Origin: Mytilus trossulus
Lineage: Eukaryota
Assembly (NCBI RefSeq): GCF_036588685.1
Contig: NC_086380.1
Coordinates: 12,648,001-12,712,000, forward strand
DNA length: 64,000 nt
Direction of reading: 5' to 3'
Below are positions 5,549-64,000 of this stretch, piece by piece (position 1 is the first letter of the stretch; each line of letters starts with the position of its first letter). Below the pieces are notes generated by a model. That model saw nothing but the letters and a program-made list of their open reading frames with translations, did no database searches and had not been told where the DNA came from. A program made the position numbers and the translations under genes.

Positions 5549-5699
5549 TCAAGTTTCCAAGGTAGAAGCCATTTTGCGAGAATCTTCAGTATCCGATATG
5601 TATTTGGTTTCCCCGAACCACCATGACGGATAAATTAACAAAGGGTTGATGGCAACAGCTTTCAAATCATTTGGGTAAAATAGTTTCTTCCATTCTTCC
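5549..5699 (-). CDS. GT25 copy 1 terminal exon (EEWKKLF...ISDTEDSRKMASTLET*)
   Basis: T-rich acceptor, YISDTE motif as in COLGALT, TGA at 5551-5549. Confidence 0.9.
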
Positions 5700-21083: not shown

Positions 21084-21528
21084 ATTTTTTATATCTTCTA
21101 CGGCTTTCCAGAGAATATCCCCAGTATTTAAATGCACGTTATTTACAAAGTATTCATCATGTTTAAACGCAATTTAAGGTAAAAATAGAATACAAAAATG
21201 AAGAGGGGAGGAACCATGTGTAATTCCAAATGCCAAAAAAATCTAAGGCTCTCTTTCGTAGTGGTAGACATTTCTGAATTTTTTCCAACAATGCAAATTG
21301 TTTTGCATACAGTGAATTTATTCATATAATTCTATCATTCATAATTCAACTATTTTTGGTGATTCATTCGGTGCGGAACTTTCTCTATCAGTAAGACTGA
21401 CCCTGTGGTTGTTAAAAACTCATTACGTTTGCCTGACGCGCGTATATAGAGAGTTCTCACCACAGTACTATTATAAGCTTAAGGATTAATTCTAATAGCT
21501 TTCCCACCCGTACGATTTGGTATTATCC

Positions 21529-21683
21529 TGTTGAGAAACCCACGAACATTAGCGTGACGTCCTGCGGACGTCGGTAAGGAACTTTAGTTGTAACGTCATT
21601 TCCTTTGTTGTTGTTACTTTATACATGAATGTGGCTTATGCAATACAAATATACACCTTAGAACTTTTGTTTCCTTCACGATA
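21529..21683 (+). repeat. 5' LTR of BEL/Pao element
   Basis: TGTTGAGAAACC...CACGATA; 6 differences from the 3' LTR by eye. Confidence 0.95.
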
Positions 21684-21707
21684 TTATGGTGCCGTGACTG
21701 CTGGAAA

Positions 21708-23745: not shown

Positions 23746-24466
23746 CAGAATTTGGAACCACATGGAAATTCATACCAAAACGTGCCCCATGGTACGGCGG
23801 ATTTTGGGAAAGACTGGTTGGACTAACTAAAAAATGTCTAAAAAGATTATTGGACGCGCATGTATAGATTTACCTCTGTTACAGACATTAGTGGTGGAAA
23901 TTGAAGCTAACCTTAACAATAGACCGCTTACCTATATATCGTCGGACATTGCCGATCCAGAGCCGCTTACCCCGTCGCATCTATTGTATGAAAGACAAAT
24001 TAAATCTTTCCCGTATCCGTTATATACAGATGAAACAGACAGTTATAGTGCCGATTTAACAACCAATCACGAAACTATGAATGATCAAGCGAAAAGGAGA
24101 TTCCGTCTAATTGAACAATTTTTAGCAAGATGGAAACACGAGTATTTGACCTCCTTACGTGAATTTCACCGAGTGTCTGGAAATAACAATCAAAGTGTAA
24201 AACAAGGAGATGTAGTCCAGATATATGATGATAATTCTCCACGTACGACGTGGAAACTCGGTGTAATTGAAGAACTTACCTACGGAAACGATAACCTTGT
24301 GCGATCTGCGACGGTCCGAACATCTAACTCTAAACTAAACAGACCAATTGTCAAGTTATATCCTTTGAAGATTTGTGAATCCGACTCAATTACTACACAG
24401 ACGCATAGATATCAGCGAAGAGCCAAGACAGATGCCGTAGAGAAAATCAGAGAGTGTTTAAAGTGA
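23745..24466 (+). pseudogene. BEL/Pao integrase C-terminal half
   Basis: WKFIPKRAPWYGGFWERLVG, EIEANLNNRPLT, PLTPSHLL, RWKHEYL, RPIVKLYPL. Confidence 0.9.
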
Positions 24467-24642
24467 CTTTTTTCAATTATATTCAAGTGAAGTGACAGTA
24501 AATTTAAATTATTTAATTTATATGAGACATTAATTTTAAAGGAAATATTTCATTTCATTTATTTGTAAAAGTTCATTCAGTTCTAGAACAATTCATTTAA
24601 TTTATTCAGTATATTTGAGACACTTTCTGCGGCCCCGGAGAA

Positions 24643-24797
24643 TGTTGAGAAACCCACGAACTTTAGCGTGACGTTCTGCGGACGTCGGTAAGGAACTTTA
24701 ATTGTAGCGTCATTTCTTTTGTTGTTGTTACTTTATACATGAATGTGGCTTATGCAATACAAAAATACACCTTAGAACTTTTGTTTCCTTCACGATA
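24643..24797 (+). repeat. 3' LTR of BEL/Pao element
   Basis: Direct repeat of 21529-21683, followed by TSD TATCC. Confidence 0.95.
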
Positions 24798-27519: not shown

Positions 27520-28740
27520 TCAATTTTTAACATGTTTTGTTTATACGAAGAAATAGGAATTGGCGCACACGAGTGCCCGATTTTAAGGCAACCACCAGAG
27601 AGACGACGCGGAAGGAGAAACCGTGTAGTTGCTGCACTAGAAATTCAAGATATGGGGTCATTTGTTGGTGAAGTACAAGCACTACTTTCTCTACAAATCC
27701 AGGCTCCGGTGCCAATTGAAAGCCAACCTGCCTTTTAAGGTTCCGTAACACCAGCACTGAACTTACAAGTGCCATTTGCGCAAGCTGAAATACCAGCTCA
27801 TTTACCAATGCTTAATCGAAATGGTGAGATAAATAATGATCCTATGCTTATACCTAATCAATCAGAATTTATCGATTTGTCATTACTTCTCCATCAATTT
27901 GTTTTAAATTGACAGACCTCAAAATGTTATAAGTTATGATAATACAGCCGGTTCATTTGAAATCACATCAAACAAAAACAGCATTGAGACATGGACTGAT
28001 GCATTTATAAATTGTATGAAAATATTAATTCAACGTTTTCCAAGTTTAGCTAGTGAATTGACTGCTCAATCGTTAGGGGGACCCAAGTGTCTTTTAAGCA
28101 GATTTATTGTTATGACCGGAAATTTAGATTAAGAATGGCAAACAATCCTACAAGATCTTGGTCTTCCATTGATGGCATTTTATGATACATCGTCATAGCT
28201 AATGGGGAACCGGAGGGTAATACGTTTACTATAGTATGGTATTCGTCTTTTGTCAATTCTATTGTTATGATTAAAAGATTGGGTTTAAATGTTGAAATTA
28301 GAAAAAAGGAGATAACATCCGCCTTCAGATTGTTAAAAATTTATTCAGGGGACTTGATCTATTAGGGTTTAAACTTAATGAATATCATTTCATAGATAAA
28401 TCATTGCCTTTTTGGTACTCAGAATCAAATTGCTTATTCGAAACATTTTTAACTTTTATTCAATGGGCTGTCATTAATGAGTCCAATTCAAATAATCTTG
28501 ATCATTATATGGATGATTTTTTTTGCCAGTAAAAGCAACAGCGAGGACTGTAAAAATCTGAAGAATAGTTTTGATAGAGTATGTTGTCGTCCTGGAGTAC
28601 CAATTGCTCATGAAAAATCAGAAGGTCCAACAACAAAGCTTAGTTATTTAGGTTTTATTTATAGACACAGCAACAAATGCTACTACAAATTTCGGAGGAC
28701 AAATTCAAAGATCGAAAATAAAATTGTGAAACTATAGTCA
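27520..28740 (+). mobile_element. Duplicated copy of the DIRS/Ngaro relic
   Basis: Same motifs as 19800-21030, within duplication unit 2. Confidence 0.75.
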
Positions 28741-30077
28741 AATAGACAAAATGATATCTCTTCTTTAAAATGCATTATTGATAAGGAAACATTTTCTTTT
28801 TAATTTTGATGTGATGCAAGAAATTTTTAATCTCAAAATATGATAAAGATTCTTAAATAGAAAGTCATTTAATTTTAATTTTAATACACTGAAGAATTTT
28901 TAAGAAGGTTGGGTAGCAATTTGAATGGAGAAAACATAATTTTATTAATAAAACATCTTCGCTCTATGCATTTATTGCCAAAGGGTAGCTATTTGAATTT
29001 AACCAATTTTACAAGTTTTCAAACGAAAGTTTAATTTGGAAATATATTTATATATTCTGCTGTAGCGATATTAGCAGGGTTGATTTTTTTACTTCGGTAT
29101 AACCTCAATTTTCTTTGTAATATGTATGCTAGTAGTTACATAAAAAAAATAAAAAATTTGGGGGGGGGGGTCTTTATAGTTTGCTGTTCGGTGTAATCCA
29201 ATGCTCCGTGTTGAAGACCGTACTTAGGCCAATGATGGTTTACTTTCACAAAAAGTGCCTCAGATGGAGAGTTGTCTTATTAGTTCTCACACAACATCTT
29301 CTGATATTATTCTGCCCATTATAAGTCAATGATATGTTCTTATTATTCAAGAATATTACTTTGCAAAAACCTGAAAGGAGATACATTTTAATATATACAG
29401 CTTCCTCTATTAATAACTGTTTTTTCTTCCAATCTTAAATAAGAAATAAAATAAAACAAATGTTTGCGTTATTACAATATTTGCATCCTTTTCAGGAGCC
29501 CTTGAGATCATTTCCACATTTTTGATGAGGTTCGAGATGCTTAGTCTTCAGTTTTGTATGTTTTGCCTTTGTGCTATTGTGTTTTTTTTCTTTTTTAGCC
29601 ATGGCGTTGTCAATTTATTTTCGATTTATAAGTTTCACTGTCCCTTTGGTATCTTTTGGCACTCGTTTGTACCAATTATGACGTAGAAGACGATCAAAAC
29701 AAAAAACAACGAACTTTGTTGTTAACGCTCTACTCAAGCCTTGATATTTTACATCGGAGTGGAATGACATTGATGTTGAAGGTAAACATCATCATCTTGG
29801 ACAGGTTTAATTACCTAATCATCGTGTATTTTTCTTTAGAAAATATGACTAGAAACTAAGGGTGCACGTGACGTTGTCGATGTTAACATCAGCGACGTCA
29901 TAAACAAAATAGCGATCGGTACAGGTTCAATGGTGAATTAAACTTGAGGATCTAAGTTCTTTTAAAAAGAAAATGAGTCAATAGATGACGATTATTAATT
30001 CATATCTCCCCTCCTGATTTGTGAATCTTCAAGCTGAAAAAACATATTTTTGGGGGATCTATATTAATATAATATAA

Positions 30078-33508: not shown

Positions 33509-33766
33509 ATATACCACATTAAGACCTGGTATCTATGATGAGTTAATATTCAGTAGTCAGCACTTCGGTGTTAACATGAGTATCAATTATGTGGTCATTT
33601 TTATAAATTTCCTGTTTACAAAACTGTGAATTTATCGAAAAACTAATAATTTTCTTATCACAGGAATAGATTACCTAAGCCGTATTTGGCACATCTTTTT
33701 GAAATTTTGGATCCTCACTGCTCTTCAACTTCGTACTTGTTTGGCTTGTTAAGTATTTTGAAATGA

Positions 33767-33810
33767 GCGTCACTGATGAGTCTTATGTAGACGAAACGCG
33801 CGTCTTTCGT
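33767..33810 (+). ncRNA. Type I hammerhead ribozyme (stem I weakened)
   Basis: gcgtca CTGATGA gtct tatgt agac GAAA cgcgc GTC tttcgt. Confidence 0.7.
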
Positions 33811-34323
33811 ACTTCTTTGGCTTGATAAATATTTTGATATGATCGTAAATAATGAGTCTTACGAAGACAGAACGCGCGTCTGGCGTACTAAATTATAATC
33901 CTGGTACATTTGATAACTATTTACCCCACTGGGTGGATGCCACTGCTGGTGGAGGTTTTTTCCCCGAGGGTATCATCAGCCCAGTTGTCAACACTTATCT
34001 TTCTAGTGGCTGTCATTATATATTTATAACAGTTGGATTGTTAACGAATTAATATATCGTTCAGTCTATCATAGTGAGAGTTTAAGTTCTGTTTCTTTTG
34101 CTCTTTCGTGTTGTCAATCAGATTCTATTTCTCTCATTTGATCAATTCTTTGTGCTTTTGGCGTTTGCAACCTGAGGTTTGAAACTGTTCTTTTTAGATA
34201 GATTTTCCACCTCTTGCCATTTTTCATCTACTGTGTCACTTTCTTCCATGTTGTTACATTTTCTTTGTGGGAGTTGAAAGCGTTCTTCAGTTTTAATGTC
34301 ATGGTTAGTTTTCATGTGTCTAA

Positions 34324-39599: not shown

Positions 39600-40426
39600 A
39601 GGCCATGTTAATCGTAACTGTATTTCCAAATTAAGTTGACTTATAACACATGTACATATAAAGAATTTGAAAAAAACGTGATACACAAAAACTTAACCAC
39701 TGAACCATTAAAATGAGGTAAAAATAAAAAATGAATATGCGGTATGCCTCTCAATGATTCAACTCTCTACAAGATACCAAATGTCAAAGAAACTTATAAC
39801 TTTGGGTAGCTAAAAGGCCTTCAACAATGAACAAAACCCATACCGCATAGTCAAAGAAAAATACAAGCAGAAAAAAAGTTCTTACACAAGACACAACATA
39901 GAAAACTTAACACTATGCAACACGAACCTCGCCAAAAGCTAGAGTAGGTCTCAGGTTTTCGAAAGGGAGGCAGATATAATATTACCCTCTGGGAATCGTT
40001 TCCCATTTGTAATAAAGAAAGGAAAGAAGTGTTATTGACCTCGACACATAAAAAAAACCTTGAATCAGTAATTTGCTCTAACTGGTATTTTATAATAAAA
40101 AAAATCAATGTAAATAAATGCTAAGTCGAGCTTCAGTCCAATAATGAGTTTATAAGAGAGTCTCTCTTATAAATTTATTTGATTACATCCATATTAGAAA
40201 CCCTTAAAAATGAACAAAAAATGAAACGAATTCGTTTGGAAGAAACATGAACACTAAATAAGGTTAATATTGTAGACACCGTTTCGATGTAGTTATTTTA
40301 CATGCATTTAACATGTTAAAGATGTGAGGTAATAGGTTTCATTATCATTATCAAATGAGTATAAATGGTATAAAGTAAAACGTTGAATGTAATCAAAAAC
40401 TGATTAACGCATTTCACTGTTTGTAG

Positions 40427-41320
40427 GAATAGAAGATGAAATACGAATAGTAATGATAGGGAAAACTGGTTGTGGGAAAAGCGCGACAGGAAATAGCATT
40501 CTACGGAAAGAAGTTTTTAAGTCAGGAAATAATTTTTCATCATGTACTAGATACTGCACACGTGGTGAAAGTACATTCGACACAGGAATAAAACCTTACA
40601 AAATAATTGTTGTCGATACTCCAGGATTATTTGACACGAAATCAAAAGCCGATGATGTGAACAAGGAAATTGCTAAGTGCCTCGGAGTAAGCTCCCCTGG
40701 TCCGCATGTGATACTTTTTGTTATGTCCCTTGCAGTACGCTTCACACAAGAGGAGGAGAATACTGCTTTACACTTTACTAATCAGTTTGGAGAAAAACTC
40801 GTTGACTTCGTAATCATTCTTTTTAGTCATGGCGATACAATAAAAAAAAGACGACTCAATTGAACAAATGATTGCCGGTGCACCAAAACCTCTCAAAGAA
40901 CTCATTAAACAATGTGGAAGCAGGTACATGGTTTTCAATAATAATCTTAAATCTACTGATAAAATGAAGAAACAGTTAAAAACGTTGATGGAGATTGTTG
41001 AACAAACGATCGAAAGCAATGGTAAATCGTTTTACACAGACGAAATGTACAAGAAAGCCGAGGAAGAACTGCAAAAACGAATCGAAGAACTTGCAATAGA
41101 AAACGACAAAATGAAACCTGTCGATCTCAGGAAAACTGTTCGGGATGAAGTTGAAGAGAATGGCGACGTGCTGTCATTAATTCGTCAAGGCATATATGCT
41201 TTTGGAAAAGTAGTCGTAAAAAGCGCTGTAGATGCTACCGGAATTCCTGGTCTCATAAAAGGTCTAACTAAATACGTCATACAGGAGAAAACAAACGACC
41301 AAACTTCAAAACCATTATAA
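40427..41320 (+). CDS. GIMAP: GIMAP/AIG1 GTPase copy 2, terminal exon; +1 frameshift in an A8 run (40842-40849), so pseudogene or assembly error
   Basis: tttgtag|GA acceptor, IEDEIRIVMIGKTGCGKS, DTPG, PGPHVILFV, RFTQEE. Removing one A joins ORFs 40453..40863 and 40868..41320 colinearly with copy 1. Confidence 0.92.
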
Positions 41321-44157: not shown

Positions 44158-44295
44158 AAGTTTTTTGTATATATATATTAATTACACATGTGTGATATTT
44201 TCTACTGGACATTTAATCAAGCAATAATCAATCTGGATTAACCGAATATTCAGAGTGTTTTTTGTTTTTAAATTCTAGTTATTCTTTTAGGAGTC

Positions 44296-45405
44296 ATGTC
44301 AGCACAGCTCGGGCGGTCAGCCAGGAAAAGGAAAAATTTGCCAATAGTGGCTGCTGCATCAGCAAGGAAAAAGGCTAACCAGAGAGTACCTGACACTATG
44401 TCAGTAACTGCACCACAGTTGCCTACAGTTGATACTGGTACACCATTCATACCCATTACTAGTTCTACTGGTACATGTACATACCCAATGTTGTTTTCAC
44501 AGACAGGGGCAGGCATATATACCAGTGCAAGTACAGGGCCAGTCGATTTGACGAGCACAGCTAATACCCTTTTATACTCAAGAGTACCACTACCAGACCA
44601 AAGAGTGTGCAACACTGTAACCAGTCAAGATCCTCCAGAACATTCCTTAGGTAATACTAATGGTGCCTCAAGTTTTACAATGCCATTTAGTACTTTTGAT
44701 CACCCTATTCAGATACCCAGCATGCATGCTAATATTGCTTTAAATGTTTCTCAAAGTATTAGAGAAAAAATTCAGAAAAGTGAATTTATTGATTTAGGCA
44801 TTTTGTTGATTAACAATACTCAGCAGGCTACACAAAAGCTTGTTTTTAGAGGGGGTGAATTTATTGTGCAAACAGAAAATATGCAAAACAAAATTGGGTC
44901 TATTGACCAATGGACATCAGCATTTATCATTTTTGTTAGTGTATATTGTACTGTGCATTCAGGTAGATTACAAGATTTACTTAAATACATGTCAGTTGTA
45001 CGTTTGGGTGCAAAAAGAAATCCAAATAATTTAGGTTGGAAGTTATATGATGAGCAATTTAGGTTGCGCAAAACACTGGATCCGGCAAGTTCATGGGCTA
45101 TAGTAGACCCAGAGCTTTGGTTATTATATATGGCTGATAGTATTGGCACACAAAATTTGGAAGTAGTTTCTTCTGGTTACAATACATTTTCTGCTAATAG
45201 AAATGTGAATAAAACGTCCAAGTGCTATGCCTTTAATTATAACGGCGAATGTTTCAATTCATTTTGTCAATATAGTCATGCATGTATACAATGTCATGGT
45301 GTTCACTCGGTTATAAACTGTCAATTCACACAAAATAATTTGCCTTCGCAAATAAGACCAAATCAACAGCCAGAACGACCCCAGCAGGGATACCAGAAGA
45401 TTTAA
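44296..45405 (+). CDS. Gag-like ORF of the Ngaro element (369 aa, uninterrupted)
   Basis: IDQWTSAFIIF, LLKYMSVVR, WKLYDEQFR, WAIVDPELWL and the Cys/His finger CYAFNYNGEC...CQYSHACIQCHGVHSVINC. Confidence 0.85.
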   Translation: MSAQLGRSARKRKNLPIVAAASARKKANQRVPDTMSVTAPQLPTVDTGTPFIPITSSTGTCTYPMLFSQTGAGIYTSASTGPVDLTSTANTLLYSRVPLPDQRVCNTVTSQDPPEHSLGNTNGASSFTMPFSTFDHPIQIPSMHANIALNVSQSIREKIQKSEFIDLGILLINNTQQATQKLVFRGGEFIVQTENMQNKIGSIDQWTSAFIIFVSVYCTVHSGRLQDLLKYMSVVRLGAKRNPNNLGWKLYDEQFRLRKTLDPASSWAIVDPELWLLYMADSIGTQNLEVVSSGYNTFSANRNVNKTSKCYAFNYNGECFNSFCQYSHACIQCHGVHSVINCQFTQNNLPSQIRPNQQPERPQQGYQKI

Positions 45406-48290: not shown

Positions 48291-51200
48291 TTTAGTCCTG
48301 GTATCTATGATGAGTTTATTTACATGTTTTATATTCTAGTATGGTCAATACGGCACCTAGAAATAACACGCTAGTGTTTTCTACACAGAAAATCATTAAA
48401 AGGTTTTCTATATTTTGGTTTAACAATATTTAATTTTATGTAATTCATTGTCATCTTTCAAATGTTTTTTATTTTAAAATTTTTTTAATTATTTAACAAT
48501 TATTCTTTTATCACAGATATATCAAAATCATCCAGGGCATTGTTAGTTCTCGGTCTACAACCGTATTTCAATGGATTCTAACACGACTCGGAACTCATAG
48601 AAAAACAAATTTTGAATGGGGTATTTTCTAATTCCTCATTACGTTTAAAACCTTGAAAATTATTGGCGTTTTAATTTTAGTATGTTGTATAGGCTGTAAG
48701 CATAAAAGTGAATCACAACATATCATAAACACGATCATAAACCTGATATACTGAATATGTGTTTATCTTGACATCTTATTGAAGATCACGCTTCAAAAGT
48801 CTGTTAGAAAGTGAGTGCTCGTCAGTCTTTACATACTACTCTCAACTAGTGAGATTAAAAGGTGCTAAGACAGAAACGCAAACACTGGTGATGAACCACA
48901 TCGAACATCTGTTAGTAATACCTCCTTGCTGGGACATACACTATGAAGCAATACTCTAGTTTAACAAAAGATCTATATAAACATGATAAATTAAGTAAAA
49001 TGTTGCGATCGGCACTCAAATCAGAAATGCCGACAACTTTTTAAGTAGTTACAATTGTCCTTATTTTAACACTTTGACAAAAGGAGACAGGTTGACTTTT
49101 TATCAAAAACTAACCCAAGAAATTTGCGTTCATCAACAATTTTAATTGGGCTTCCGTACAATATAAAAAAAAAGATGCGGTATGATTGTCAATGAAACAA
49201 CTCTTCACAAAAAAACCAACGACACAGCAATTAACAACTATACACCGTACGGCCTTGAACAATGAACAAAGATAATACCACAAGTTCAGCTATAAAAGTC
49301 CATGAAATGACAAGTGGGAAACAATTCAAATCAAGAAACTAAAGTGAGTTTTAGAACAGGGTGCAATTTCCTTTTGTTACAGAAATTCATCCCAATCTTT
49401 TTTGAGGTAGAACATCTAAATCGATTTCCGAGTCCAATTTTTCGATTTTTCAAAAACACAGTTGAAATTGGCGTTCTATGTTTCTCATGATCATAGTTTT
49501 ACTTCTTTTTTACATTTTTAACGCACAATGCTGTTGATTTTAAGACTAGATAACAAAATGCCATGGGGAACAGTCATCTCTTGATCATACAAATCAGACA
49601 GTGATTATTTCCTCTTATATTTTAAAACGTGTCTGCTAGACAGAAAAGACGATATAAAGTTTGCCTTTCAAACCCATTTCAAAAGACCTTTCAGTGACAC
49701 TCGAATAAAAAAAAGTTAAAAAGGCCAAATGAAATATGCAGTTTAAGAGCATTGAGGAACAAAAATCCTAAAGGTTTTGCCAAATCTAGCTAAGGTAAGT
49801 GTCCTTTGAATTAAACATACATTTTATTACACCAACTTCTATTTACATTTTCATGCCTAGAATATACATTTTTACATTGTGGCATTACTTTGGCTACAGA
49901 GTTTTTTATAATATTTTGTTGAGGCACCAGAGTGACAACCGATTACCTATACACAATGGCTTTCACCTGACTTATGTTGACATAGTGTCATAAAACCCCT
50001 GGTAGTAAAACACGGTTACATCTCACCTACCATGGGGAGTGACCTAGGAAAACACTGGTATTACCAATGCGCCAGTTATTAGTGCCCCAACTATTGGCAG
50101 GTGTAGGCCTCCTCTCTATAAGATGAGGTGGAGGAGGTCCCAGAGTTACCCATCTGTAGACCCCACCTTTACCATTAAACACATTTTCCAAACCTGCACA
50201 TTGTAGAACTTTTCAGGCCAAGGGCAAGGGCCGAGTGAGATAATCCGCCAATCACTACCAGTTACCTTGGACCGCCTAAAGAGAGCCACAGTCAGCTACC
50301 AGATCTGACTGGGATTCTCACCTCCACAAAATTTTCATTATTGAATCATTGGAACAGTTGATTTTGTTGTGAGTAGGAAAGACTCAACCTTTTGTATATT
50401 ATTTAAGGAAACCTTATTCCTAGTTTGTGACAAATGAGTTCCAACTGTTCTGTATAAAGACACTTCACTTGCCCTATTGTTCTCATGTAATAAAGCTTTT
50501 CCCCCGTTTTCTATTACAAAGTTTTTAACCTATGAATTCACTCTTTTTCTTTTCTGTTCGATTATTGCACCCGCATTCAAGGGGGCAAAATGCCATTATC
50601 TGCGCTGTAGCATTGAAGACCAGATAATGATAACATTTTAAAATAAAGCTTTGTAACGTAGGATAGAACATTTTACATTTTTTATTAAACCCTTCCGTAT
50701 CCGTTCTAAATCTGTCAAATCATTAGCTTCACAGTGAATAATAATAAAATTAGGAGAAGGTAAAATAAATCTTTTTGCGTCCAAAGAGAGTCCAAATCTA
50801 TCATCTATAAACCAGGTTGCCTAATGCAGTATGTTGTTACACCTTTTGACCCCAGTGACAGGTTGTTCCTACCAAATGTCTTCGCCTCTACGTTGGCCAA
50901 ATGAACAAGGTAACTACCAGCAATCCATTAAATATTAGGACCTGTAAAAACCTGTAGGTTGTTAGCCTTTTGAAACTAGAAAAATTGTAACCTAATACAA
51001 TGTATAGCGAGAAAAAGCATATGACATCCATCTGCCTAATTTCATAATTACCTCCTCTGAGACCCCCTGCCTGGCTAGCTCCGTGGCTCCCCCCATTCTA
51101 ACTATGTGACCTAAAATGATCTTTACTTATATGAACAAAATATAAACTTTTTTCCAGAATACCACTGAATTGGTCTCTAGTTAAAAACATACCAGTATAA

Positions 51201-51920
51201 TGGATAAACAAATCTGTATTGTTACAGATAGGTCGTACCTTTAAATGAGTCGTTAATGAGTCGTAACGGACAGTATTTTTTTCCGCTCTCATGTATCAAC
51301 AAAGTTACAGACTTTCCCTTTTGGTCAGTTTTTGACCACCTTACTCTTAGCTCCCTGACTTTTCTCCTAACTAAAATATCAGAAATTGTTAAGTTGGAGA
51401 ATTTATATCAGACTTGGATTTTGAAGTAGGGATTTCCCCTACTCTTAGCAAACCAAAGAAGGCAACAGAAAAAAAACTGCTGAAAATAAAGCAGCTTCGA
51501 ATTTATTTTTACATACTTAATCCAAACAACTTATCATATTTTATAACAATTGCACTATAATTGGTGCTCTAACGTCATTACGTTCCCCCCCCCCCCTTGA
51601 ATTCTTTTTATACCTTCTAATGCCTTTCCAATTATAAAGAAATGTGTAGTATCCTGTATCTCTTGAATTTTATGATGGTATGAAACTCCTGATATATAAG
51701 ATAATATGCCCCCCCCCCCCAAAGACCATGTACTGACAAAAAAGCTATAAAATTAAACAAGTCATTGACCGGCACCAGCCAATCCTGTATCAATTTATAA
51801 TTATAATTATAAATAAAAAAGGATTACCTTAGCCGTATTTGGCACAACTTTTGGGAATTTTGGATCCTCAATGCTCTTCAACTTTGTACTTGTTTGGGTT
51901 TATAAATATTTTTGATTTGA

Positions 51921-51964
51921 GCGTCACTGATGAGTCTTATGTAGACGAAACGCGCGTCTGGCGT
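51921..51964 (+). ncRNA. Type I hammerhead ribozyme
   Basis: gcgtca-CTGATGA-gtct(tatgt)agac-GAAA-cgcgc-GTC^tggcgt; predicted cleavage after 51958; palindromic stem III. Confidence 0.92.
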
Positions 51965-52277
51965 ACGAAATTATAACCCTGGTACCTTTGATAACTATTC
52001 ACACCACTGGGTCGATGCCACTGCTGGTGGACGTTTCGTCCCCGAGGGTATCACCAGCCCAGTAGTCAACACTTCGGTGCTGACATGAATATCAATAATG
52101 TGGTCATTTTTATAAATTTCCTGTATACAAAACTTTGAACTTTTTGAAAAACTAAGGATTTTCTTATCCCAGGCATAGATTACCTTAGCTGTATTTGGCA
52201 CAACTTTTTTGGAATTTTGGATCCTCAATGCTCTTCAACTTTGTACTTGTTTGGGTTTATAAATATTTTTGATTTGA

Positions 52278-52321
52278 GCGTCACTGATGAGTCTTATGTA
52301 GACGAAACGCGCGTCTGGCGT
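52278..52321 (+). ncRNA. Type I hammerhead ribozyme
   Basis: Identical to 51921-51964. Confidence 0.92.
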
Positions 52322-52633
52322 ACGAAATTATAACCCTGGTACCTTTGATAACTATTCACACCACTGGGTCGATGCCACTGCTGGTGGACGTTTCGTCCCC
52401 GAGGGTATCACCAGCCCAGTAGTCAACACTTCGGTGCTGACATGAATATCAATAATGTGGTCATTTTTATAAATTTCCTGTATACAAAACTTTGAACTTT
52501 TTGAAAAACTAAGGATTTTCTTATCCCAGGCATAGATTACCTTAGCCGTATTTGGCACAACTTTTTGGAATTTTGGATCCTCAATGCTCTTCAACTTTGT
52601 ACTTGTTTGGGTTTATAAATATTTTTGATTTGA

Positions 52634-52677
52634 GCGTCACTGATGAGTCTTATGTAGACGAAACGCGCGTTTGGCGT
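52634..52677 (+). ncRNA. Type I hammerhead ribozyme (GUU cleavage triplet)
   Basis: Same core, with GTT in place of GTC (still NUH). Confidence 0.85.
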
Positions 52678-53512
52678 ACGAAATTATAACCCTGGTACCT
52701 TTGATAACTATATATAAGATGATCTAAAAGTACAAAGATTTGACAGAGCCAAATTGTATGATTTTTGTGTATTTTTGGACACACCTTGATTGAAAATAAA
52801 ATCAGCCACCTGACTCAAATGTTCCAGATCTATGTTGGAACTTTGTTGGCCACTGGTCTGCTTCTGGAGCTAGGCTTATGGAATTCCCCCACTGAGAACG
52901 AGAAAGACAACCGGCAATTAGGTTTTGTTTTGAAAGGATATAAATTGCCTTAACTAATTTATTATTTTTTTAAGTTCATTAAAACCATCGGTATTAATAA
53001 ATTCATAACTCTACTTGATTTGCTAGTTTTCATATTAATGATTTGAACAGCCGCTTGATTATCCACATAACAAAATAGGGTTCCCAGGACACAAGAGCAG
53101 CTACAACTGGAAACAACTCTAACAAGGTCGTATCTCTTGTGATTCCAGTCTCTACCCAATGTTTTGGCCATATGCCATGGACCCCCTAAACTGCAAAATA
53201 GATAATATATCCGCCTTTGGATCCCCCTGAACAACTCTTTTTTTTTTCATTTGAAACCCATACATTGTCTGTTATAACAGTGACACCATTGTATTGTTTT
53301 AAAAAGTCTAACCAAACTACTAAATCTGCTTTCATCTGCTTGTTTACTAAAATTTTGTAATATATTTTCTTATCCCGATTGTTGAATTTATGAGTCTGCG
53401 ACAGAAAGTGCGGCCTGGAGCAACTAACTTACAGTCAAAGTTCAGGTTCAAAGAAGGGATTGTATATCTTTAAGAGTTATTTTAGAACTGTCCAAGATAT
53501 CTCTGATTTTTT

Positions 53513-53712
53513 TTTATTATTCGTTGGATACCAATTTTCGTGGATTTCATGGGAACAGACGAACCACAAAATTAAATGATCAACGAATATCACATTGTCT
53601 ATAGGCTTGTTTGCAGATTTCTCTAAAACCGCGAAATTAAATATCAACGAACATGAAAATTTTCCTCAATCCACGAAAATTGGTACCCACGAAAATAAAT
53701 GAATCCACAGTA
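53513..53712. mobile_element. Small MITE inserted in the Ngaro RT
   Basis: Inverted ends ttattattcgttggataccaattttcgtggat / atccacgaaaattggtacccacgaaaataa; interrupts the RT frame. Confidence 0.7.
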
Positions 53713-54181
53713 CCAAGAAACATAAGTAATGTAGTCGGCAAAGTAGTCTTGTCACTAGCTAGAGGAATACATATTTTGTTGCATACCTCTTGGAATAACT
53801 TCAAAGTATTGCCAACTTTTGATGTTTGACTCGACTCGACAAAAAGAAAATCATCTAAATAATGAAAGATATCATCGTTTCCGCTTTTGGATAGGATAAA
53901 TCTTGAATAAGTCTGAAATTCCAATCCTTTTTTGACACTAGCCCCATTGGTGATACCTGAAGTGTGGGAAAAGGTGGGTATCTGAAAGGACCAGAAATGC
54001 GACCAACTTTAACTTTTGTCAATAAATTTTCATTAAAATGTTTGGGTAGCTGTAATGCACTGTTTAAATTGGAACACTCCCTTGGTTCCCTAGAGCCATA
54101 ATAATTAAATGAAAAACCGTATTTGAAACCAGATATAATTTGTGAGTAAAATTCTAAATAATTTTCTAAAACTGATACTTT

Positions 54182-54449
54182 TATACTTTCCTTTGCCAAC
54201 AAAGGTCTCGATGGCGTCAACTTCAGCAATATCCTTCATCATGAATTAGTTCAATCGAAAATAACTCCTTATTTCAAAGAACAGTCTGTACCAATCATTC
54301 CTTATACCTATATCAAACCTATTGCAACTAAAACTTTCAATTACAAACACGTTTTGAAGGATCTCGATATTGACGACTTCAAGTCTAAACCTCCTGATTG
54401 CACTTGTGCTAATTCCCGATTCACATATAATCTTGCTGGCCACGTTATA
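54182..54449 (+). mobile_element. Penelope-like element ORF fragment (N-terminal to RT)
   Basis: LSFANKGLDGVNFSNILHH...PIIPYTYIKPIATKTFNYKHVL...PPDCTCANSRFTYNLAGHVI, recognised from memory as a bivalve PLE segment. Confidence 0.6.
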
Positions 54450-54748
54450 ACATGTATCATTTGATTTTTAAAGGATTCAGGGTTTTAAAATGTTGTTCTT
54501 TATTTTATGTCCTGCCTTTTTATCTGTCACTCTATTTAGCCTTGCCTTTTCTAGTAGTTTATCTTGATCTCAATTAATACATTGTTATCCTACCTTGTTA
54601 GTAGCTACAGGTTACAATACAATTTTTCGAACTCCACTTAGTAAATAACAAAACATTGTAATTGGCAGACATATTTTATTGAAAACCTCGAGAAAATTAC
54701 AATGTGATCCACAAATAAAGTATCAGGTTTCCAAGGTAGAAGCAATTT

Positions 54749-57700
54749 ATAGTAAAGGTTGTAAATTGTAATGTTGTTATGTATGAATGAAAGTTACATG
54801 TACTTTAAACCGTAACTGGTAATCCTATAGTGTATTGTTTTTATTAATGAATGAAAGTTACATGCGTTTTATTGAGAATGAACAATGAATATAACAAACA
54901 TTAACATTAATTATATGGTTTAGGTCAGGCAGACCGAACAGAGAGAATTCTCTCTCTTTTTGTATTGTATTGTATATTTGATATGTTTTTCTGTATTTTG
55001 TTTCTACTTAGTTATATAATGTTCAACTACGTTAAGTGTATCACATATGAAATTAATAAGACTGTAAAGCCAAAACTAGATAATGGCTAATTATTGTATC
55101 AATTTAACTTCTCTTAATGTAAATGGCTTTGGAAACGATTTTAAACGCAAATCCATGTTTCTTTGGTTAAAAAAATTTCAAAGCGACATCATTTTCTTGC
55201 AAGAAACACACAGTACTGAATCGTATGAAACTATATGGAAAAGGGAATGGGGTGGAGATATTTATTTTTCGCACGGGGAAACGAACTCTAAAGGTGTTGC
55301 TATTTTGTTTAACAGCTCAACAGATTATATATTAAAGGAAAAAATTGCAGATGAAAACGGAAGGTATCTCATTCTAACTGTTGAAATTGAAAACACAGAT
55401 TTTGTTTTTGTGAATTATTATGCACCGACCAAAAACTTTGAAAATGACCAAATTGAATATATTGAAAAATTAAAAGTTTTATTAAATGAAAAGTTAGAAC
55501 AAAATCTCGTTTTGGGTGGAGATTTTAATACGATACTAAATCTATCTTTAGACAAAATGGGTGATTCAAAATATAACACACCTGTCAAATATACGAGTAA
55601 ATTAGAAGATTTTATAGAAGAATTTGACTTATGTGATATTTGGAGGACAAAAAATGTTGACTCTAGATTATATACTTGGCGTCAAAGAACCCCGCTTATA
55701 CAATGTCGCTTAGATTTTTGGTTGATATCGAATTTTTTGTCAAGCAGTGTTACAAAAACATCCATTGTTCCGTCTATAAAATCTGATCATAGTCTTATCA
55801 AGTTGACACTGTCAGGCGAAAACTTCAGTGAGAGAGGTCCCGGTTTCTGGAAATTCAACTCGGGTTTATTGACAGACAAAGATTATGTGGATATAGTCCA
55901 AAATACTTTATCAGAATGTGATGATAAATATCAAAATTTAGAAAATAAAAATTTAAAATGGGATACCATTAAAAGTGAAATAAGGGGCGCAACCGTCAAA
56001 TATTCCAAATATAAAAACATGAAATTGCGGGAAAGAGAGTCCAGTTTAAAAAAACGACAAGACGAAATTCAGAAAAATCTCTCTCGTACATATTTAGATA
56101 AAGATATAAATACACTTTTAATTGAATTAGATATTGTTAAAGAAAATTTAGAGCAAATAGTAAATAATCAAACAAGAGGGGCTATTATACGATCACATGC
56201 CGAGCACTGCGAAGGCAATGAAAGAAATTCAAAATATTTCTTATCATTAGAAAAACGTAATTATAAAAATAAATGTATTAACAAATTAGTTGTAAACGAC
56301 ATTGAAATATTGTCACAAGAAAAAATTCTAAACGAAGAGAGAAATTTCTACGAAAATCTGTACTCATCAAAAGAAGACCCTGATAAATATTCAGGTGATT
56401 CTAACTTTTTTGATTTAAATTTTATTCCTAAGCTAACAGATCTGGAAAAGGATATATGCGATGCAGATATTTCAGAATCTGAGTGCGTTAAAGTTTTAAA
56501 AACATTTAAAAATAATAAAAGCCCTGGTACAGATGGGCTTACCGCTGAGTTTTACAAATTTTTCTGGATTGATGTAAAAAAAATATGTTTTGGAAAGCTA
56601 TGAATATTCCTTCGAGACCGGAACCCTCTCAATAGACCAAAGACGGGGTATTTTGACTCTTATTCCAAAGAAAGATAAAGATAGAACACTCTTGTCGAAC
56701 TGGCGACCTCTTTCTCTCTTAAATTTTGATTACAAATTATTAGCCAAAGTTATTGCGGAAAGAATGAAATTATTTCTTCCGAAACTTATAGATCCGGATC
56801 AGACAGGATATGTGGCTGGTAGATATATTGGTGAAAATCTACGACTAATTGCTGATATTATATTGTTTACTACTTTAAAAAATTATCCAGGGCTTATATT
56901 ACTAGTCGATTTCGAAAAGGCGTTTGATACGCTAGAATGGAAATTTATTCAAAAAGCATTGGCTTGTTTTAATTTTGGTAGCAAGTTCCGGAAATGGGTC
57001 TTAACTTTATACTCAAATATATCTAGTCTTGTCGTTAATAATGGATTTAGTTCTAGTCCGTTCAAAATTGAGAGAGGTGTTCGACAAGGGTGTCCTTTGT
57101 CTCCTTTTTTATTTATTTTGGCCGTTGAACTGCTGGCAATAAATATTCGTAAGAACAACCATATATCAGGTATAAAAATTGGGGATACTGAAATAAAAAT
57201 TTCACAGTTGGCTGATGATACCACTTGTTTTTTGAAAGATGTATTTTCTGCGCAAATTTTATTAGATTCCTTTAATGATTTTGTGAAGTGTTCAGGGTTA
57301 AAAGTCAATTTTTCGAAAACCGAAGCAACATGGATTGGAAGAAATAAATTAAACAAAGAAGGTTCCCTTCCTATTAAATGGACAGATGGTTTTAAAACCT
57401 TAGGTTTAAAATTTAACGCTTTTGATGAAATGGTTTGTTCTAACTTAGATTCATGCATAGAAAAAATTTAATCAATTATTAAAATGTGGAGGATCAGAAA
57501 CCTTTCCTTGATCGGTAAAATCGTAATTCTTAAATCACTTGCAATATCGAAGCTTATTTATGTCATTTCATCTACACATGTACCAAGATCTTATGTAATT
57601 AAAATACAAAGGGACATTAATAACTTTTTATGGAATGATAGTACTCCGAAAGTTAAATCGGAAGTTATTCAAAAGTGTCCTAGCGAGGGGGGACTGAAAG

Positions 57701-59102
57701 CACCAAATTTTAAAGTACAGCTGTTATCCTTTCGTATCATGTGGGTAAAACGATTTTTGTCAGAACATGACTCTAAATGGAAACATGTTTCCAAAGCATT
57801 CTTCTCCCTTTTTGATTTAGAGGACTTATTTATGAGCAGATGTGAATTTGAGTTTTTAAATTTAAAAGCACCTCTTTTTTATATAGAAGTGCTATCTGCT
57901 TGGAAACGTTTCAAGGGTATTTTCATCCCGTTAAATGCATTTCATGTTAGAAAAGAATTTATTTGGTTCAATCCGTTTATCAAGGTTAACAGAACGAGTA
58001 TTTTTTTACAGATCTTGGTACACGAAAGGCATAAGGTTCATTAATGATATTGTAGATGATAAAGGCGAATTTTTGTCTCATGAGGCTATTAACAAAAAAT
58101 ATAATTTGAATGTTACTTTTGTAGACATTCTTTCTATTAAACTTGCTATACCACGTGACTGGAAAGATTTGTTATTACAACAACACATGTCACCTAAGAG
58201 CAACTCTTTTGGATTCGTTTTTGAGCATGAGAATAAAAAAATGCCTATTAGCAAATTATATACTAAAGATGTATATTCACTTTTTATCGATCGGGTAAGT
58301 GTTTCTCCTATTTCACAACAAAGGTGGGAAGAAAGTTTTAATATAGAAATTAGTGACGAAAAGTGGAACAATATTTATTCACTAGCTTTTAAATGTACTA
58401 TTGAAAGCAAACTACAAGCTTTTCAATATAAAGTGTTAAACAGAATAGTCTCACATAATTATCTCCTTGAAAAATATAAACTGTCTTTAACTAATGAGTG
58501 TGCCAGTTGTAAAGAAATAGAAACTATAGAGCATTATTTTTTTGAATGTATAGAAATAAAACGATTTTGGAGAGAATTTTCTAATTGGTGGCATTTAGTT
58601 TTTGGAGTAAAAATATTTTTTAATAAATACAGTGTCATTTTTGGTATATTGAATTCTGATAACTTAGTGTTAAACTATTGTATTTTACAGGCAAAGTATT
58701 ACATTCATTATGTTAAGTACACACAATTAGACAGATTGTTTATATCTGTGCAAGCTTTTCTCAAATTTTTTAAAAGACGTCTGGAGATATTAGAATATTT
58801 ATATCTTTCTAAAGACAAGCACGAGTCATTTGTCGACAGATGGGGGGAATTTATGGAAGTTATTAATTAAATTTTATTCTCGATATGATCATGTATATTT
58901 AATGTATTCCAAAGTATCTTTTACCTGTATCATATACCGATTATTCACATCATTTACTTGTATTTGTTTTTACTGTCTTATTCGTAAAATATCAATAGTA
59001 TGACTATGCCATATGTCAATCACTTATATATTGTAAAAATGTATGTATGTATGTATGCACTGTAGCTTGAACACCAAAAAGATCAATAAAAAATTTAAAA
59101 AA
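54749..59102 (+). mobile_element. Tx1/L1-clade LINE, 5'-truncated (ORF2 only), young insertion
   Basis: 16-bp TSD aaggtagaagcaattt at 54733-54748 and 59103-59118; AATAAA at 59085 and an A-rich tail; empty site visible in GT25 copy 1 near 5559. Confidence 0.95.
55083..58870 (+). pseudogene. LINE ORF2 (AP endonuclease, RT, C-terminal zinc finger) with 2 frameshifts and 1 stop
   Basis: SLNVNG, LQETH, GGDFN, SDH; KSPGTDG, DFEKAFD, GVRQGCPLSP, LADD; CASC...ETIEHYFFEC. +1 in A8 at 56576-83, TAA at 57469-71, +1 in T7 at 58001-07. Confidence 0.95.
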
Positions 59103-59511
59103 AAGGTAGAAGCAATTTTGCGAGCGTCTTCAGTATCCGATATGTATTTGGTCCCCCCAAACCACCAGGACGGATAAATTAGCAAAGGGTTGGTGGCAAC
59201 AGCTTTCAAATCATTTGGGTAAAATAGTTTCTTCCTTTCTTCCCTGAAAAAAATTCCCTGAGATTTTGATCTATAAATCAATAATAAATTCATATAAATT
59301 TTAGACTTAGATGCACGATATGTTTATACTTATATAGTTGTTATTGGCTTTTAGTTAGCTGACAGTAACTACAAGTACTCTCAGATCTGTATTTGGTCTT
59401 CTTTTTGTAGGGATGCATATGTTTTTGTTAAATGTATTTCTATTTGTATCCATCTTATGAGGTAAGACTTTTTAAAGATTTTTTAAAGTTAATTTTTATT
59501 TTGGGGTTCGA

Positions 59512-59555
59512 GCGTCACTGATGAGTCTTTTGAAGACGAAACGCGCGTCTGGCGT
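59512..59555 (+). ncRNA. Type I hammerhead ribozyme, second repeat subfamily
   Basis: gcgtca CTGATGA gtctt(ttg)aagac GAAA cgcgc GTC tggcgt; intact core and stems. Confidence 0.85.
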
Positions 59556-59592
59556 ATATACTAAATTTAGTCCTGGTATCTATGATGATATC

Positions 59593-59707
59593 ACAGTAGC
59601 ATGGGTTCGAATCCCGGCGAGGAAAGAACCAAAGATTTGCGAAAGCAAATTTACAGATCTAACATTGTTGGGTTGATGTTTCGACGAGTTGTATATATAT
59701 TAGACTC

Positions 59708-59750
<43 letters not shown>
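59593..59750 (+). mobile_element. Truncated tRNA-derived SINE-like fragment ending in (TA)n
   Basis: B-box GGTTCGAATCCC near 59603; (TA)n at 59709-59750; absent from duplication copy A. Confidence 0.6.
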
Positions 59751-59752
<2 letters not shown>

Positions 59753-62632
59753 TGTTAGTTATTCCTGTGTGATTTGGTCTCTTTTTGGAGAGTTGTCCCG
59801 TTGTACCACATATTATGTCTATGTATATATAAGTACATTTGACCCATTGACAACTCTACGACATATTTCATCCATCGGATCACCAGCGATGGCGATACAA
59901 GGCTGAAAATACATTATGTATATATGATTCTTCTTAATAACAGCTCAACAATATAAGATCTGTAATTGTGCGGAATATCCTCATATAGACGAAACCTGCG
60001 CCTGGCATGAACAATTAAATCTGTGATGAATGTTTACAACATCTGAGTTGATGTTTTTGATTGGTGGATGTCTTATATAAGGATATCACTACCCCAAAAG
60101 TATTCATTCTCGTGCTGACATGAGACATCATTAATATGTTGTTTTGTTGTTCAATTACTGAGTTTTACATTTTGATTTATTCTATCCCTCCTTCAGTTTT
60201 TGATTGCCTAAGCCGTATTTGGCTAGTGTTTTTCGGAATGTCCGGTATCTAAACAACCACCAACACCGCACAAAGACAACCAGTTCAAGAACGGGAGCAA
60301 TCAATGAAACCAATAAGCTTTCAACTCGTTTTATAAAAGAATATAATTAGCAGTTATATAGACATACATATGTTTTGAAGCTCAAATTGGCAATGAAAAC
60401 AGGAAATGTTTCAAAGATACAACAACACAACCAAAGAGCAGAAAACATCACATGACAACAATGAGTCTTCAACACAGCAAGAAAAATGGACGTCGCACTA
60501 CGTCTGTTTATATAAGAAAAATAATAATTTATTCGTATAACAATAAACTCATCATAGCTTCTTTGTTCATATAATAATAACTTCATCATAGATGCCAGGA
60601 TTGTTTTTTTTGTTACACAGATGCGCGTGTCGTCTACAAAAGATGTAGTCTCATCTGTAACGCTCGTATAAAAAAAAATGAAAAGTCAAAACAGAACGAA
60701 GTCAAAGAGAACATTGATGACCCAAACAATGTTATCAAGTGTCGCCAAAAGAAGCTAAGTTTATCTATTCCTGTGGTAGAAAATCATTCGTATTTCGAAA
60801 AATGCAAAGTTGAGTAAAATGTTAATTTATAACTATGACCATTTCAATAATGCTTGTCAATACTTGTCATTATTAAAGTTCTTAATTATAATCCTGGTAC
60901 ATTTGATAACTACTTACATTGGATGTCTATTGTACATAAGTGGTATCAACTCGTCGGTTGGAACAAGTTTGTGTAATGGTTTTTGCTTCAGTGTCTTTTT
61001 TTGCACCTTTTCTTGTGATTGCATACGCTGACGCCCAATAGGAAAAATCTGGCCACTTTGCAAAATGCGTTCCGTCCATATATTTATCAGCAGTTTCATG
61101 CATGGGCTTGCGTCCCAAAAATCTACAACAAATCAGTTGTTTAGTATACAGGAAAAAAATCGACCATACTAACACAGTTTTGCAATTTGGTTGTATGTAA
61201 TAGAGAAGGTCGAATGTAATGACGCAAATAATCTTCGTTTGTGTAAGGTAAAGTTACGTCGATCTACTGTCACTTGGGTAACACATTTACACTCACAATA
61301 AAATGTCTAGATAGAAAATGCAATCGAAAAACTATATTATTAGCAATTCATTTCTGACAACAGACTAAGATGTTTAATGATGATAATTCATTTCAAGATT
61401 TTGCAGCTGTCGACATTTTAGATATCTATCGACAACCCAATGTATAATTTTTTATCGAAACGAAACTATGCTGATGCATTCAAACATTTATTTTTTCGTA
61501 ACGAAAGATACGTGCACAAATTATGTTTTGATTTTTTCGTTTCCCTTTTAATCCCTACTTTCCCTACATTTTTAGGTCTAACACAATCCACCGATTCTCT
61601 TAGCCCTTTTAATAAGATGCTTTCATAGCTTTTGAGTTAATACTTTTAGTCACACACACTAGCGAAAAAATATACAAATTGAATTTTAGTTTCCATTGCG
61701 TTTCCTCTTCAATGATCTCATTGTGGACATCAAATAAAGAAATAAAACTTATAGAACATGTGTTAAATTTATATCTTGCTAATTGTCATCCTAAACCACA
61801 AGTGAAAAATCTACAGTGTCACGAATTATTCAAGTCTTTCAAACAGTAAAAATAATCGAAGAAAAGACTTTTGTGTCAACCCATGACTGCTGACTACCAG
61901 ACGTATGTTAATGTGGGACACAAAACATCCACCATCACAGGAATTGAATCATAGTTTGTTTTATCTCTTCAAAGGTCAAGTTTACTCACTTGGTACGCAT
62001 AACGTGCGTAACGAATACACAATACGCTTAGCCTTTGAGTAGTAAACACTGAGTTTCAAAATAATTTTTTTTCGGTTTAACTCAGACAAAGGGATCTTTG
62101 TAGGCTTTAACGAGAGAGAAAACTGTGCTAAATCTGTAGAATGAGGGCAAAAAGGTTTTCCTCAATCCACGAATATTGGAATTCATGAAAATAGAAGTAG
62201 ATTATATTTCGTTGACCTTGAATCAATAATACTCACAAAAGATCCCAATCAGGAACAAACTCTTCTATATCGGCAAACGACCTTGACAATTGTTTGCGAA
62301 ACATAGGAACGAATTGTGCATCATCTTCTAGTATCAAAACTCTTCGGTAATTCTTCACTATCATCTATGAATATATAAAATAAAAAGCAGAATAAAAAGC
62401 AGAATATTTTCCAATTTCTAAATCGATGTATCGTTTTGGTAATGTACTTATATTTTGAATACTCGCTGTAAATGAGTGTGTAATAAGAACCATTTTAATT
62501 GGCATATTTGTTCCCTTATTTTAAATGATTTTAAATTTGAATGATCAACACGAATTGTTGAAAAAAAATAATTTTGCAGAATCCTATATCAAATGTAAGC
62601 TAAGAACTCTAAACACCAGATTTGCATATAAA

Positions 62633-63846
62633 TAAGTGATATAGATACAACGGATAAGCGTTGATACCATGAGCCCGCAGGGCGAATGGTTTGTTTTTCA
62701 TGAATCAACGCTTCTTCATTGTATCTATAACTTAAACTATTGTGATAATGTCTTTTCAAAATTAAAGCCTATTCTCAATTAGAAGGTATTGTAAGTGAGT
62801 TTAAATAACCATGTGATCGTGACAAACGATGCATTACAGTAAATTATATATTACAATCTTAAATGGTTAAAACAATACACATACATGTTTTACAAAACAC
62901 GTCTGCCCACAAAGATTTACATTTATCAGGCATCTGACTATTATATGTTTTGACAAAATGAGACATATTTGATCTTATTTCTAATAAATTGAGAATGAAA
63001 ATGGTGAATGTGTCAAAGCCGGGAACAACAACTTGACAAAAATCATATATATCGTATATATAAAGCATGTATCCGTAATTTCTAACAAGATGTCTTATTT
63101 CTAGACACATCACGATTTTCTAGCAAAAGAATTTGCGTACAGAGTATAAACAGATAAAATCTTACTATATTGATTTATAAAACAAAAATGAACACTTATA
63201 ATGTAAACATTTTCGTTTGAAACATGTGGAATAGCTAACAATGATCCAATAATAAACGACCAAACTCGCTTTTATTAAACAAAATATCCACAATAACTTA
63301 AAAAACAAGAAACAAAACAGAAAAACTAGAGAATAGGGACAACAACAAAAAAAGACCAGGATTCGAACCTAAGCCGACAAGTTCTAACTCATTGAACATA
63401 ACCACGAAAACTTGCGGCTACCAACTCATACTATACAATTGCCTATTAATGTATATATAAAGGTACAATCCATGTGTGTCCGTTGTACCAATGTATATCA
63501 AATATTCATTTATATATATAAATTAGACAAATAAATGGTAACCAATTGGTAGCCGCGAGGTTATGTCGATATGTTGATGTTAGTGACACTTAAGAGAATT
63601 CATGGACGGGTTCGACTCCAAGTGCAGGCATATAGAAATCACAAAAATTAAAGGTAAGTTTTTAAAATAATTCCATTACTGAACAGAATTCAGTAAATTG
63701 GCCTTTTCAACCTTAATGTAATTAGGCACACAAAGGAAACAAAAGAATATAAAATGGTGAGTCAATTTCAGCGACGGATTAAGAAAGCGTTGATTCTAGA
63801 AAAAGAATCCACGGTAAATGAATAGGCTGACGTCACCACTATGGTT
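62633..63846. mobile_element. 1.2-kb insertion with a terminal hairpin and two divergent tRNA-like segments
   Basis: Absent from copy A (gcatataaa|taaaggaaac at ~9420); TAA at both junctions; inverted repeat at 62633-62734; A/B boxes at 63355-63424 (-) and 63546-63629 (+). Confidence 0.75.
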
Positions 63847-64000
63847 TAAAGGAAGCAGAACTATACCGCTCTCCAATAGTTATACTTCATTCAAACGAAC
63901 TAAAAATACCGGCAAGATACTAAAACCGAGGGGAAACCATTAACTATAAGTTTAAAAAATGTCAACAAAAACACTGAACTACATGAAAAGCAAACGACAA

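Follow-up and report, generated by a model that had tools for sequence, protein, structure and literature searches.

A tandem hammerhead retrozyme array in Mytilus trossulus with a candidate reverse-transcription start site 40 nt past the ribozyme cut

A tandem array of type I hammerheads

We analysed a 64,000-nucleotide stretch of the Mytilus trossulus genome (contig NC_086380.1, positions 12,648,001 to 12,712,000; hereafter the window), which carries a tandem repeat on its forward strand at 51822-52711. TRF, run on the 64-kb window, describes this array as 2.5 copies of a 357-nt period with 98% matches; it measures 890 bp (2.49 units of 357 nt) and has a G+C content of 39%. It contains three type I hammerheads, at 51921-51964, 52278-52321 and 52634-52677, whose CTGATGA cores begin at 51927, 52284 and 52640. 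Cleavage is predicted after C51958 and after C52315, in both cases at a GUC triplet, and the cut-to-cut monomer (51959-52315, 357 nt) is the predicted linear or circular RNA unit. The third hammerhead has the triplet GUU (ending at T52671), which is expected under the NUH rule to cleave less well.

All three hammerheads match the Rfam model Hammerhead_1 (RF00163), the first two with 33.0 bits (E = 1.5e-5) and the third with 29.1 bits (E = 2.9e-4). Because these scores fall slightly below the gathering score of the model, which is 34, a scan of the whole window at gathering level returned no match. A loose hammerhead core pattern occurs six times in the window; 30 windows simulated with a Markov model contained it 0.23 times on average. 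The first two units agree with the RF00163 consensus at every core nucleotide and throughout stem III, and depart from it in stem I and loop II. Stem III, 2 bp closed by a GCGC loop, is identical to the consensus; this is the form customary among invertebrate type I hammerheads, as opposed to the minimal one of Penelope elements.

An earlier note, made from the letters of this DNA, had described three cores spaced 357 and 356 nt apart in almost identical monomers, with cuts after 51958 and 52315, and had suggested a search with Rfam hammerhead models. We find the spacing, the cut positions and the likeness of the units (which differ by three substitutions and by slips in one T run) as it had given them, and the Rfam model recognizes the hammerhead in three of three units. 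Its reading of GTC in every core holds for hammerheads 1 and 2 and fails for the third, which has GTT; the very short palindromic stem III that it had singled out is there, in what proves to be the ordinary invertebrate form. The repeats had also been taken to be delimited by the hammerheads, but the array is not bounded by them: truncated on its 5' side, it opens with position 220 of the monomer and runs 40 nt beyond the third cleavage site. The word "recent" can be kept only in a relative sense, the units lying three substitutions apart while other retrozyme copies in the window are 71-90% alike. As the note had supposed, the minus-strand frames over the array appear incidental, an 86-codon one having no Pfam match.

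The insertion site

The array is framed by two copies of TATAA, at 51796-51800 and 52713-52717, which make up a candidate 5-bp target-site duplication, short and in an AT-rich context. Metazoan non-LTR retrozymes, if they have such a duplication, have one of more than 4 bp. Between the left copy and the repeat, at the 5' junction, lie 21 nt of A/T filler (51801-51821) that resemble the target repeats. A contig of the RNA run X15 follows the left flank to about 51800 and no further, which is what one would expect of a copy that is not interrupted. We found no homologue spanning the empty site in viral contigs.

The interrupted sequence is a degenerate DIRS-like retrotransposon on the minus strand (51561-54235), whose RT-like fragments at 53640-54235 match further RT-like fragments of the window (tblastx, E = 6e-7). 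Pfam returned no match on the flanks of the array; the frames on its two sides lead through the Atlas to Phage_int_SAM, with values of 0.94 (26% of members) and 0.88-0.89 (13-19%), and these recombinase N-terminal-like frames are in register across TATAA. We take these frames to be the recombinase gene of a DIRS-like element.

Relation to the described mussel retrozyme

Given its genus, its unit size and its two hammerhead sub-families, the array very likely belongs to the 350-390-bp retrozyme of mussels. M. galloprovincialis was reported to contain about 5000 hammerheads of type I, which fall into two similar families and lie within repeats of 350-390 bp (Cervera and de la Pena 2020, PMC7229834; clones MN642551-MN642576, Mg353; retrozyme DRtz_Mg353). 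According to the same report, the self-cleavage rate kobs is about 0.1/min, measured on one cloned genomic repeat; the circles are abundant on northerns of every tissue tested; the 353-nt monomer is ligated in vitro by RtcB, a tRNA-type ligase; and circles dominate the retrozyme RNA, the linear form making up from under 5% to 25%. Our array shares with this retrozyme a Mytilus host, a tandem arrangement, a type I hammerhead, a unit of 357 against 353 nt, two similar hammerhead families, a G+C content below 50% and high expression. It also displays general features of metazoan non-LTR retrozymes, namely a tandem unit within 150-450 bp and a type I hammerhead in each unit, and the assignment to this class in the earlier note agrees with ours. 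Retrozymes of this kind, and very probably this family itself, were described and tested in mussels in 2020 and are not new.

The note had further raised the possibility that the hammerheads act as dimers. This is conceivable in that the ACGCGCGU palindrome is predicted to form an 8-bp duplex between two units (-13.3 kcal/mol), whereas the published mussel ribozyme cleaves from a single cloned repeat.

The family is dispersed, with more than 10 related segments in the window and copies at five metagenome loci (L001-L005) that were obtained from a scan with the hammerhead pattern. In one DNA run, 62512 contig pieces match the monomer and its left flank. Eight short gene calls lie on other retrozyme copies and carry no domain, and the hammerhead pattern had no match in viral contigs. 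A full-text literature search with four 15-nt motifs of the array returned no retrozyme paper and one unrelated preprint. We also considered the share of the array's 31-mers found in 14 DNA runs under four organism labels (0.88-0.90) as a sign of a shared young sub-family, and set it aside because thousands of family copies can supply such words.

Transcription of the family

As a query we used one monomer with 97 nt of left flank (51725-52178), aligned at 90% likeness to four of 24 listed sequencing runs. The RNA reads come from two raw runs, X22 and X24, of a single study, perhaps of other animals or of another Mytilus species. The family accounts for 5219 of 8.71 M reads in the first and 9086 of 7.34 M in the second (0.06% and 0.12%). 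First mates are 5.8 and 9.6 times commoner on the minus strand which, assuming the usual stranded library, corresponds to the hammerhead sense, and at least 663 and at least 1589 such sense reads span head-to-tail joints. The retrozyme family is thus highly transcribed, mainly in the hammerhead sense and head to tail. RNA depth is unbroken across the cut site, which fits circles or uncut multimers alike, and we saw no pile-up of read ends in the RNA runs, at the cut site or elsewhere on the unit. Minus-sense reads over head-to-tail joints number 122 and 185, and may reflect antisense transcription or strand leak.

The copy at this locus is probably silent or a minor passenger in that RNA. Only 30 and 33 reads of the two runs are at least 99% alike to the array query. 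At the sites that are most diagnostic, the array's own letter is present in no more than 4-5% (X22) or 1-2% (X24) of sense reads, and over six diagnostic sites its letters range over 4-16% and 1-6%, respectively. The near-zero RNA depth on the left flank was not taken as proof of silence, because the flank itself occurs in many copies and the insertion may be absent from these animals. We also observed that one variant of the unit accounts for about 65-75% of sense reads in X24, for about 30-50% of those in X22 and for a smaller share in the DNA run; each animal may be dominated by few source loci or by amplified circles.

A common 3' end

The last 40 nt of the array, 52672-52711, lie past the last cut, and we regard their end as a candidate reverse-transcription start site. 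The 3' end can be made out in six family-1 copies that carry a hammerhead, and in four of them it falls at +40 to +42, counted from the cut: the array itself (at 52711), L003, L004 and L005. The remaining two end elsewhere, one at +116 (33996) and the other at +1 to +7 (33804-33811), where a 76-nt repeat follows. The count leaves out hammerhead-less fragments (49678-49799; L001, 2007-2079), very old copies, and L002, which runs off its contig and so has no visible 3' end. By a rough, post hoc estimate that assumes uniform ends, the chance that at least three of the five other copies end within the same 3 nt is about 6e-6. The 5' ends, by contrast with this fixed 3' end, vary from copy to copy (monomer positions 102, 158, about 175-193, and 220).

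The same end is visible in the reads. In RNA, 326 and 377 reads of the two raw runs, together with 14 contigs, exit the repeat at 51999, the homologous point of the query, and outside it their consensus agreement is 0.37-0.48, as expected from many separate insertions within host transcripts. Minus-sense depth halves at this position, from 510 to 243 and from 625 to 333. In the DNA run, position 51999 is absent from the best 6 of 1116 loose-end rows, and three joints, among those listed, exit from 51997-51999.

A second hammerhead sub-family behaves in the same way: six of its DNA copies, five of them independent (33502, 59549, 60620, 7395, L001 and L003, two of these lying within one duplicated segment), lose mutual similarity at the point homologous to +40. 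Likewise, six of seven matches among protein representatives diverge at the homologous point, directly after the same translated word; the matches that do so are spurious gene calls on retrozyme copies. We looked for a second recurrent 3' end, as would be left by a 30-40-bp tail between two RT start sites, and saw only the one. We found no mention of a fixed 3' end in the main text of PMC7229834 or its preprint, in the available text of the 2026 preprint on vertebrate retrozymes discussed below, or in passages of reviews, and literature searches brought up no further paper that describes it; supplements (e.g. Figs S4, S5 and S9 of PMC7229834) and curated repeat libraries may show it.

Several observations on individual copies accompany this analysis. 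The second sub-family has a 40-nt tail of its own (59518-59588, L001, L003), and several of its copies are only about 90 nt long; it contributes about 240 reads per RNA run, with loose ends at 51965. The segment 33453-33996 is a composite older copy, in which a sub-family-2 hammerhead and tail are followed by a family-1 unit that runs from position 102 to the cut site, and then by the 76-nt repeat with a decayed hammerhead, continuing to +116; the RT may have switched templates at the cleavage site, or one copy may have inserted into an older one. Two old retrozyme copies, 60573-60918 and 7356-7701, are inverted (71% and 65% alike), and beside them lie tail-like 35-nt pieces in the opposite orientation (60884-60918 and 7667-7701), an arrangement that recalls how Penelope-like insertions can be inverted and 5'-truncated. 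Both inverted copies sit in a duplicated segment, at about 5559-9562 and 59103-63988, whose two instances are 80-90% alike.

Predicted RNA structure

Beyond the +40 end, the monomer continues with an AC-rich stretch and then a G+C-rich hairpin, at +48 to +105 (52006-52063 in the array, and again in unit 2), which is a candidate signal for RT binding. Nowhere else in the unit is the fold more stable than in shuffled sequences; for the hairpin, z is -2.6 to -3.0, with 3-11 of 500 shuffles equally stable. Covariation among four copies lends it no support, one of 25 pairs showing a two-sided change.

The monomer as a whole had been a candidate for a highly self-paired RNA, which the folding does not support, with z of +0.92 for the linear form and +1.06 for the circle. 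In that the predicted circle is no more self-paired than shuffles, the array unit is unlike the M. galloprovincialis retrozyme. The hammerhead is mostly unformed in the predicted circle (stem I pair probability 0.07), and in this respect resembles some of the published mussel circles, in which it is not freely formed either (PMC7229834).

Candidates for an autonomous partner

According to a review of 2020 (PMC7761336), as far as its available text goes, retrozyme repeats show no motif that identifies their partner. One idea that we considered was that an autonomous ORF begins with the frame running over hammerhead and tail. Searches with this frame gave 8 and 7 matches: short predicted genes that lie on copies of the repeat, and a single repetitive protein that is unrelated. 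None of the proteins carrying the frame has an RT domain (0/8 and 0/7, i.e. 0/15). Two Naiad-type Penelope-like fragments occur in the window, at 54165-54497 and 15249-15440. The former matches the protein P0001 at 85%, and in full-length relatives, P0004 and P0014, a GIY-YIG domain precedes the RT. We rejected it as the retrozyme's own body, as it lies 1.45 kb away and is separate, and as four such Naiad-type proteins, used as queries, gave no match in any of the five metagenome loci. No RT or GIY-YIG frame recognizable with these queries adjoins hammerheads in the window or in those five loci. The Naiad clade was reported to be without hammerheads (PMC8557442).

How the array may have been made

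Which enzyme moves animal retrozymes, and whether the circles are copied, are questions raised in print. For one Penelope element, it was reported that AT-rich DNA is nicked and that reverse transcription begins within the element's RNA, in an AC-rich stem-loop that lies past the hammerhead (Frangieh et al. 2024, PMC11167929). Genomic copies end at the RT start sites, of whose 3' sequence about 55 nt are required, and hammerhead cleavage is dispensable in vitro (PMC11167929). The array resembles this element, the Poseidon Penelope-like element PAc of Anolis, in its fixed internal end past the hammerhead, its AT-rich target and its AC-rich start, and in that no reads end at the hammerhead cut (PMC11167929). 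There are also differences: PAc is autonomous and has two start sites, which lie 85-92 nt beyond the cut and are separated by the 30-40-nt "tail", whereas the mussel repeat has a single site at +40 and no ORF; and the requirement for RNA 3' of the start site is demonstrated for PAc, while the mussel hairpin is a prediction (PMC11167929). Vertebrate non-LTR retrozymes have moreover been argued to be non-autonomous derivatives of Penelope-like elements (Li, Clavereau, Pollet 2026, 10.64898/2026.07.22.740005). The Xenopus retrozymes of that preprint are, like ours, tandem type I hammerhead units, and are linked there to Penelope-like elements; the evidence given is co-occurrence and pLTR similarity, and we found no analysis of molluscs or of insertion ends in its available text (10.64898/2026.07.22.740005).

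A base-precise +40 end common to two sub-families, 5' truncation and an AT-rich target together amount to the insertion signature described for the Penelope element in 2024. These features of the mussel copies point to target-primed copying from a fixed point. From these observations, we consider it highly probable that a Mytilus hammerhead retrozyme inserted at this site, in what looks like a recent event. RNA of its family is made head to tail and is predicted to cleave itself into units of 357 bases, which would then circularise; the copying into this site was likely done by a Penelope-type RT starting 40 bases past the cut. In the pathway that we envisage, an endonuclease would nick an AT-rich target (TATAA at the site of the array), and the RT would start inside the RNA at +40, beside the AC-rich stretch and the G+C-rich hairpin. 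It may then cross the cleavage/ligation junction, circle the template about 2.5 times and drop off at a variable point, so that a single event would account both for units that are nearly identical and for ends that are fixed on the 3' side and variable on the 5' side. A start at +40 on a cut linear monomer would give only 40 nt, and the template must therefore be a circle or an uncut multimer; the data fit these two equally. Tentatively, as a proposal that we hold to be possible and somewhat short of probable, we suggest that mussel retrozymes carry a cis-signal by which Penelope-type initiation is set to exactly 40 nt beyond the cut, where the G+C-rich hairpin has its foot, and that the arrays are single rolling-circle cDNAs made on circular RNA. 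On this rolling-circle reading, a start at +40, being internal to the monomer, would oblige each full insertion to copy the cleavage junction as well. If the proposal is right, such arrays would be a direct genomic record of retrotransposition via circRNA, and would offer a 110-nt handle to fish out the missing autonomous RT. Either way, the +40 end makes the question of the partner enzyme testable with a short RNA; it is a small, testable addition to what is known of retrozyme movement, and a modest mechanistic lead.

The insert could instead have been copied from a linear, uncut multimeric transcript, cleavage and circles being a side product rather than a transposition intermediate, an explanation that we find plausible if rather doubtful. 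Internal initiation on such a multimer would yield the fixed +40 end equally, the continuous RNA depth over the cut site, with no piled ends, fits it, and a Penelope element, the one example tested, inserts as well when its hammerhead is mutated and uses mainly unprocessed RNA as substrate (PMC11167929). Against it stand the predominance of circles in mussel RNA, in which the linear form is the minor one (PMC7229834), and the letters themselves: at 8 of 9 sites checked, letters rare in the family RNA are common to the first two units, as from repeated passes over one template, although a homogeneous source array would match too. The shared differences, about 8-12 from the majority read letters, could be put down to a local DNA duplication (unequal crossing-over or slippage) of an older monomer, near-identity then being a matter of homogenisation rather than of recent retrotransposition. 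A 76-nt duplication does exist in another copy (33730-33889), and tandem growth by local amplification is favoured in the 2026 preprint (10.64898/2026.07.22.740005). We nevertheless think this origin unlikely, as the period is exactly one unit, the same head-to-tail joint occurs in hundreds of reads and in L002, the 3' end of the array is the family-wide +40 end, and the candidate target duplication frames the array as a whole.

More unlikely still, in our judgement, is that this is no independent retrozyme, the units being pseudo-LTRs that belong to an autonomous Penelope-like element with a coding part that has been lost or is located elsewhere. The geometry of the ends is that of Penelope elements (PMC8557442, PMC11167929), and Xenopus retrozymes resemble pLTRs, 24 of 57 families matching known elements (10.64898/2026.07.22.740005). 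The mussel data argue otherwise: the hammerheads of the window and of the five metagenome loci are not adjoined by an RT or GIY-YIG frame recognizable with the four Naiad-type queries, the flanks of the array are DIRS-like, the family RNA runs head to tail, and stem III has the canonical invertebrate form.

Other features of the window

A near-complete LINE lies on the plus strand at 55080-58867, with AP endonuclease, RT and zf-RVT domains spread over several long frames. The region 16632-28795 holds two 4.4-kb segments that are 97-98% identical and that we presume to be DIRS-like, each with an old inverted retrozyme piece; between them is a BEL/Pao-type fragment (21594-24463) with DUF1759 and DUF1758. 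An open frame of 377 codons at 44272-45402 has no Pfam match and looks to us like a DIRS gag-like ORF. Finally, the window contains two GIMAP/AIG1 GTPase genes, at 1133-2044 and 40408-41317, which are 72% alike at the DNA level and the second of which is split over two frames; the closest named relatives of the GIMAP-type gene are from M. galloprovincialis (90%), followed by other Mytilus proteins (60-71%).
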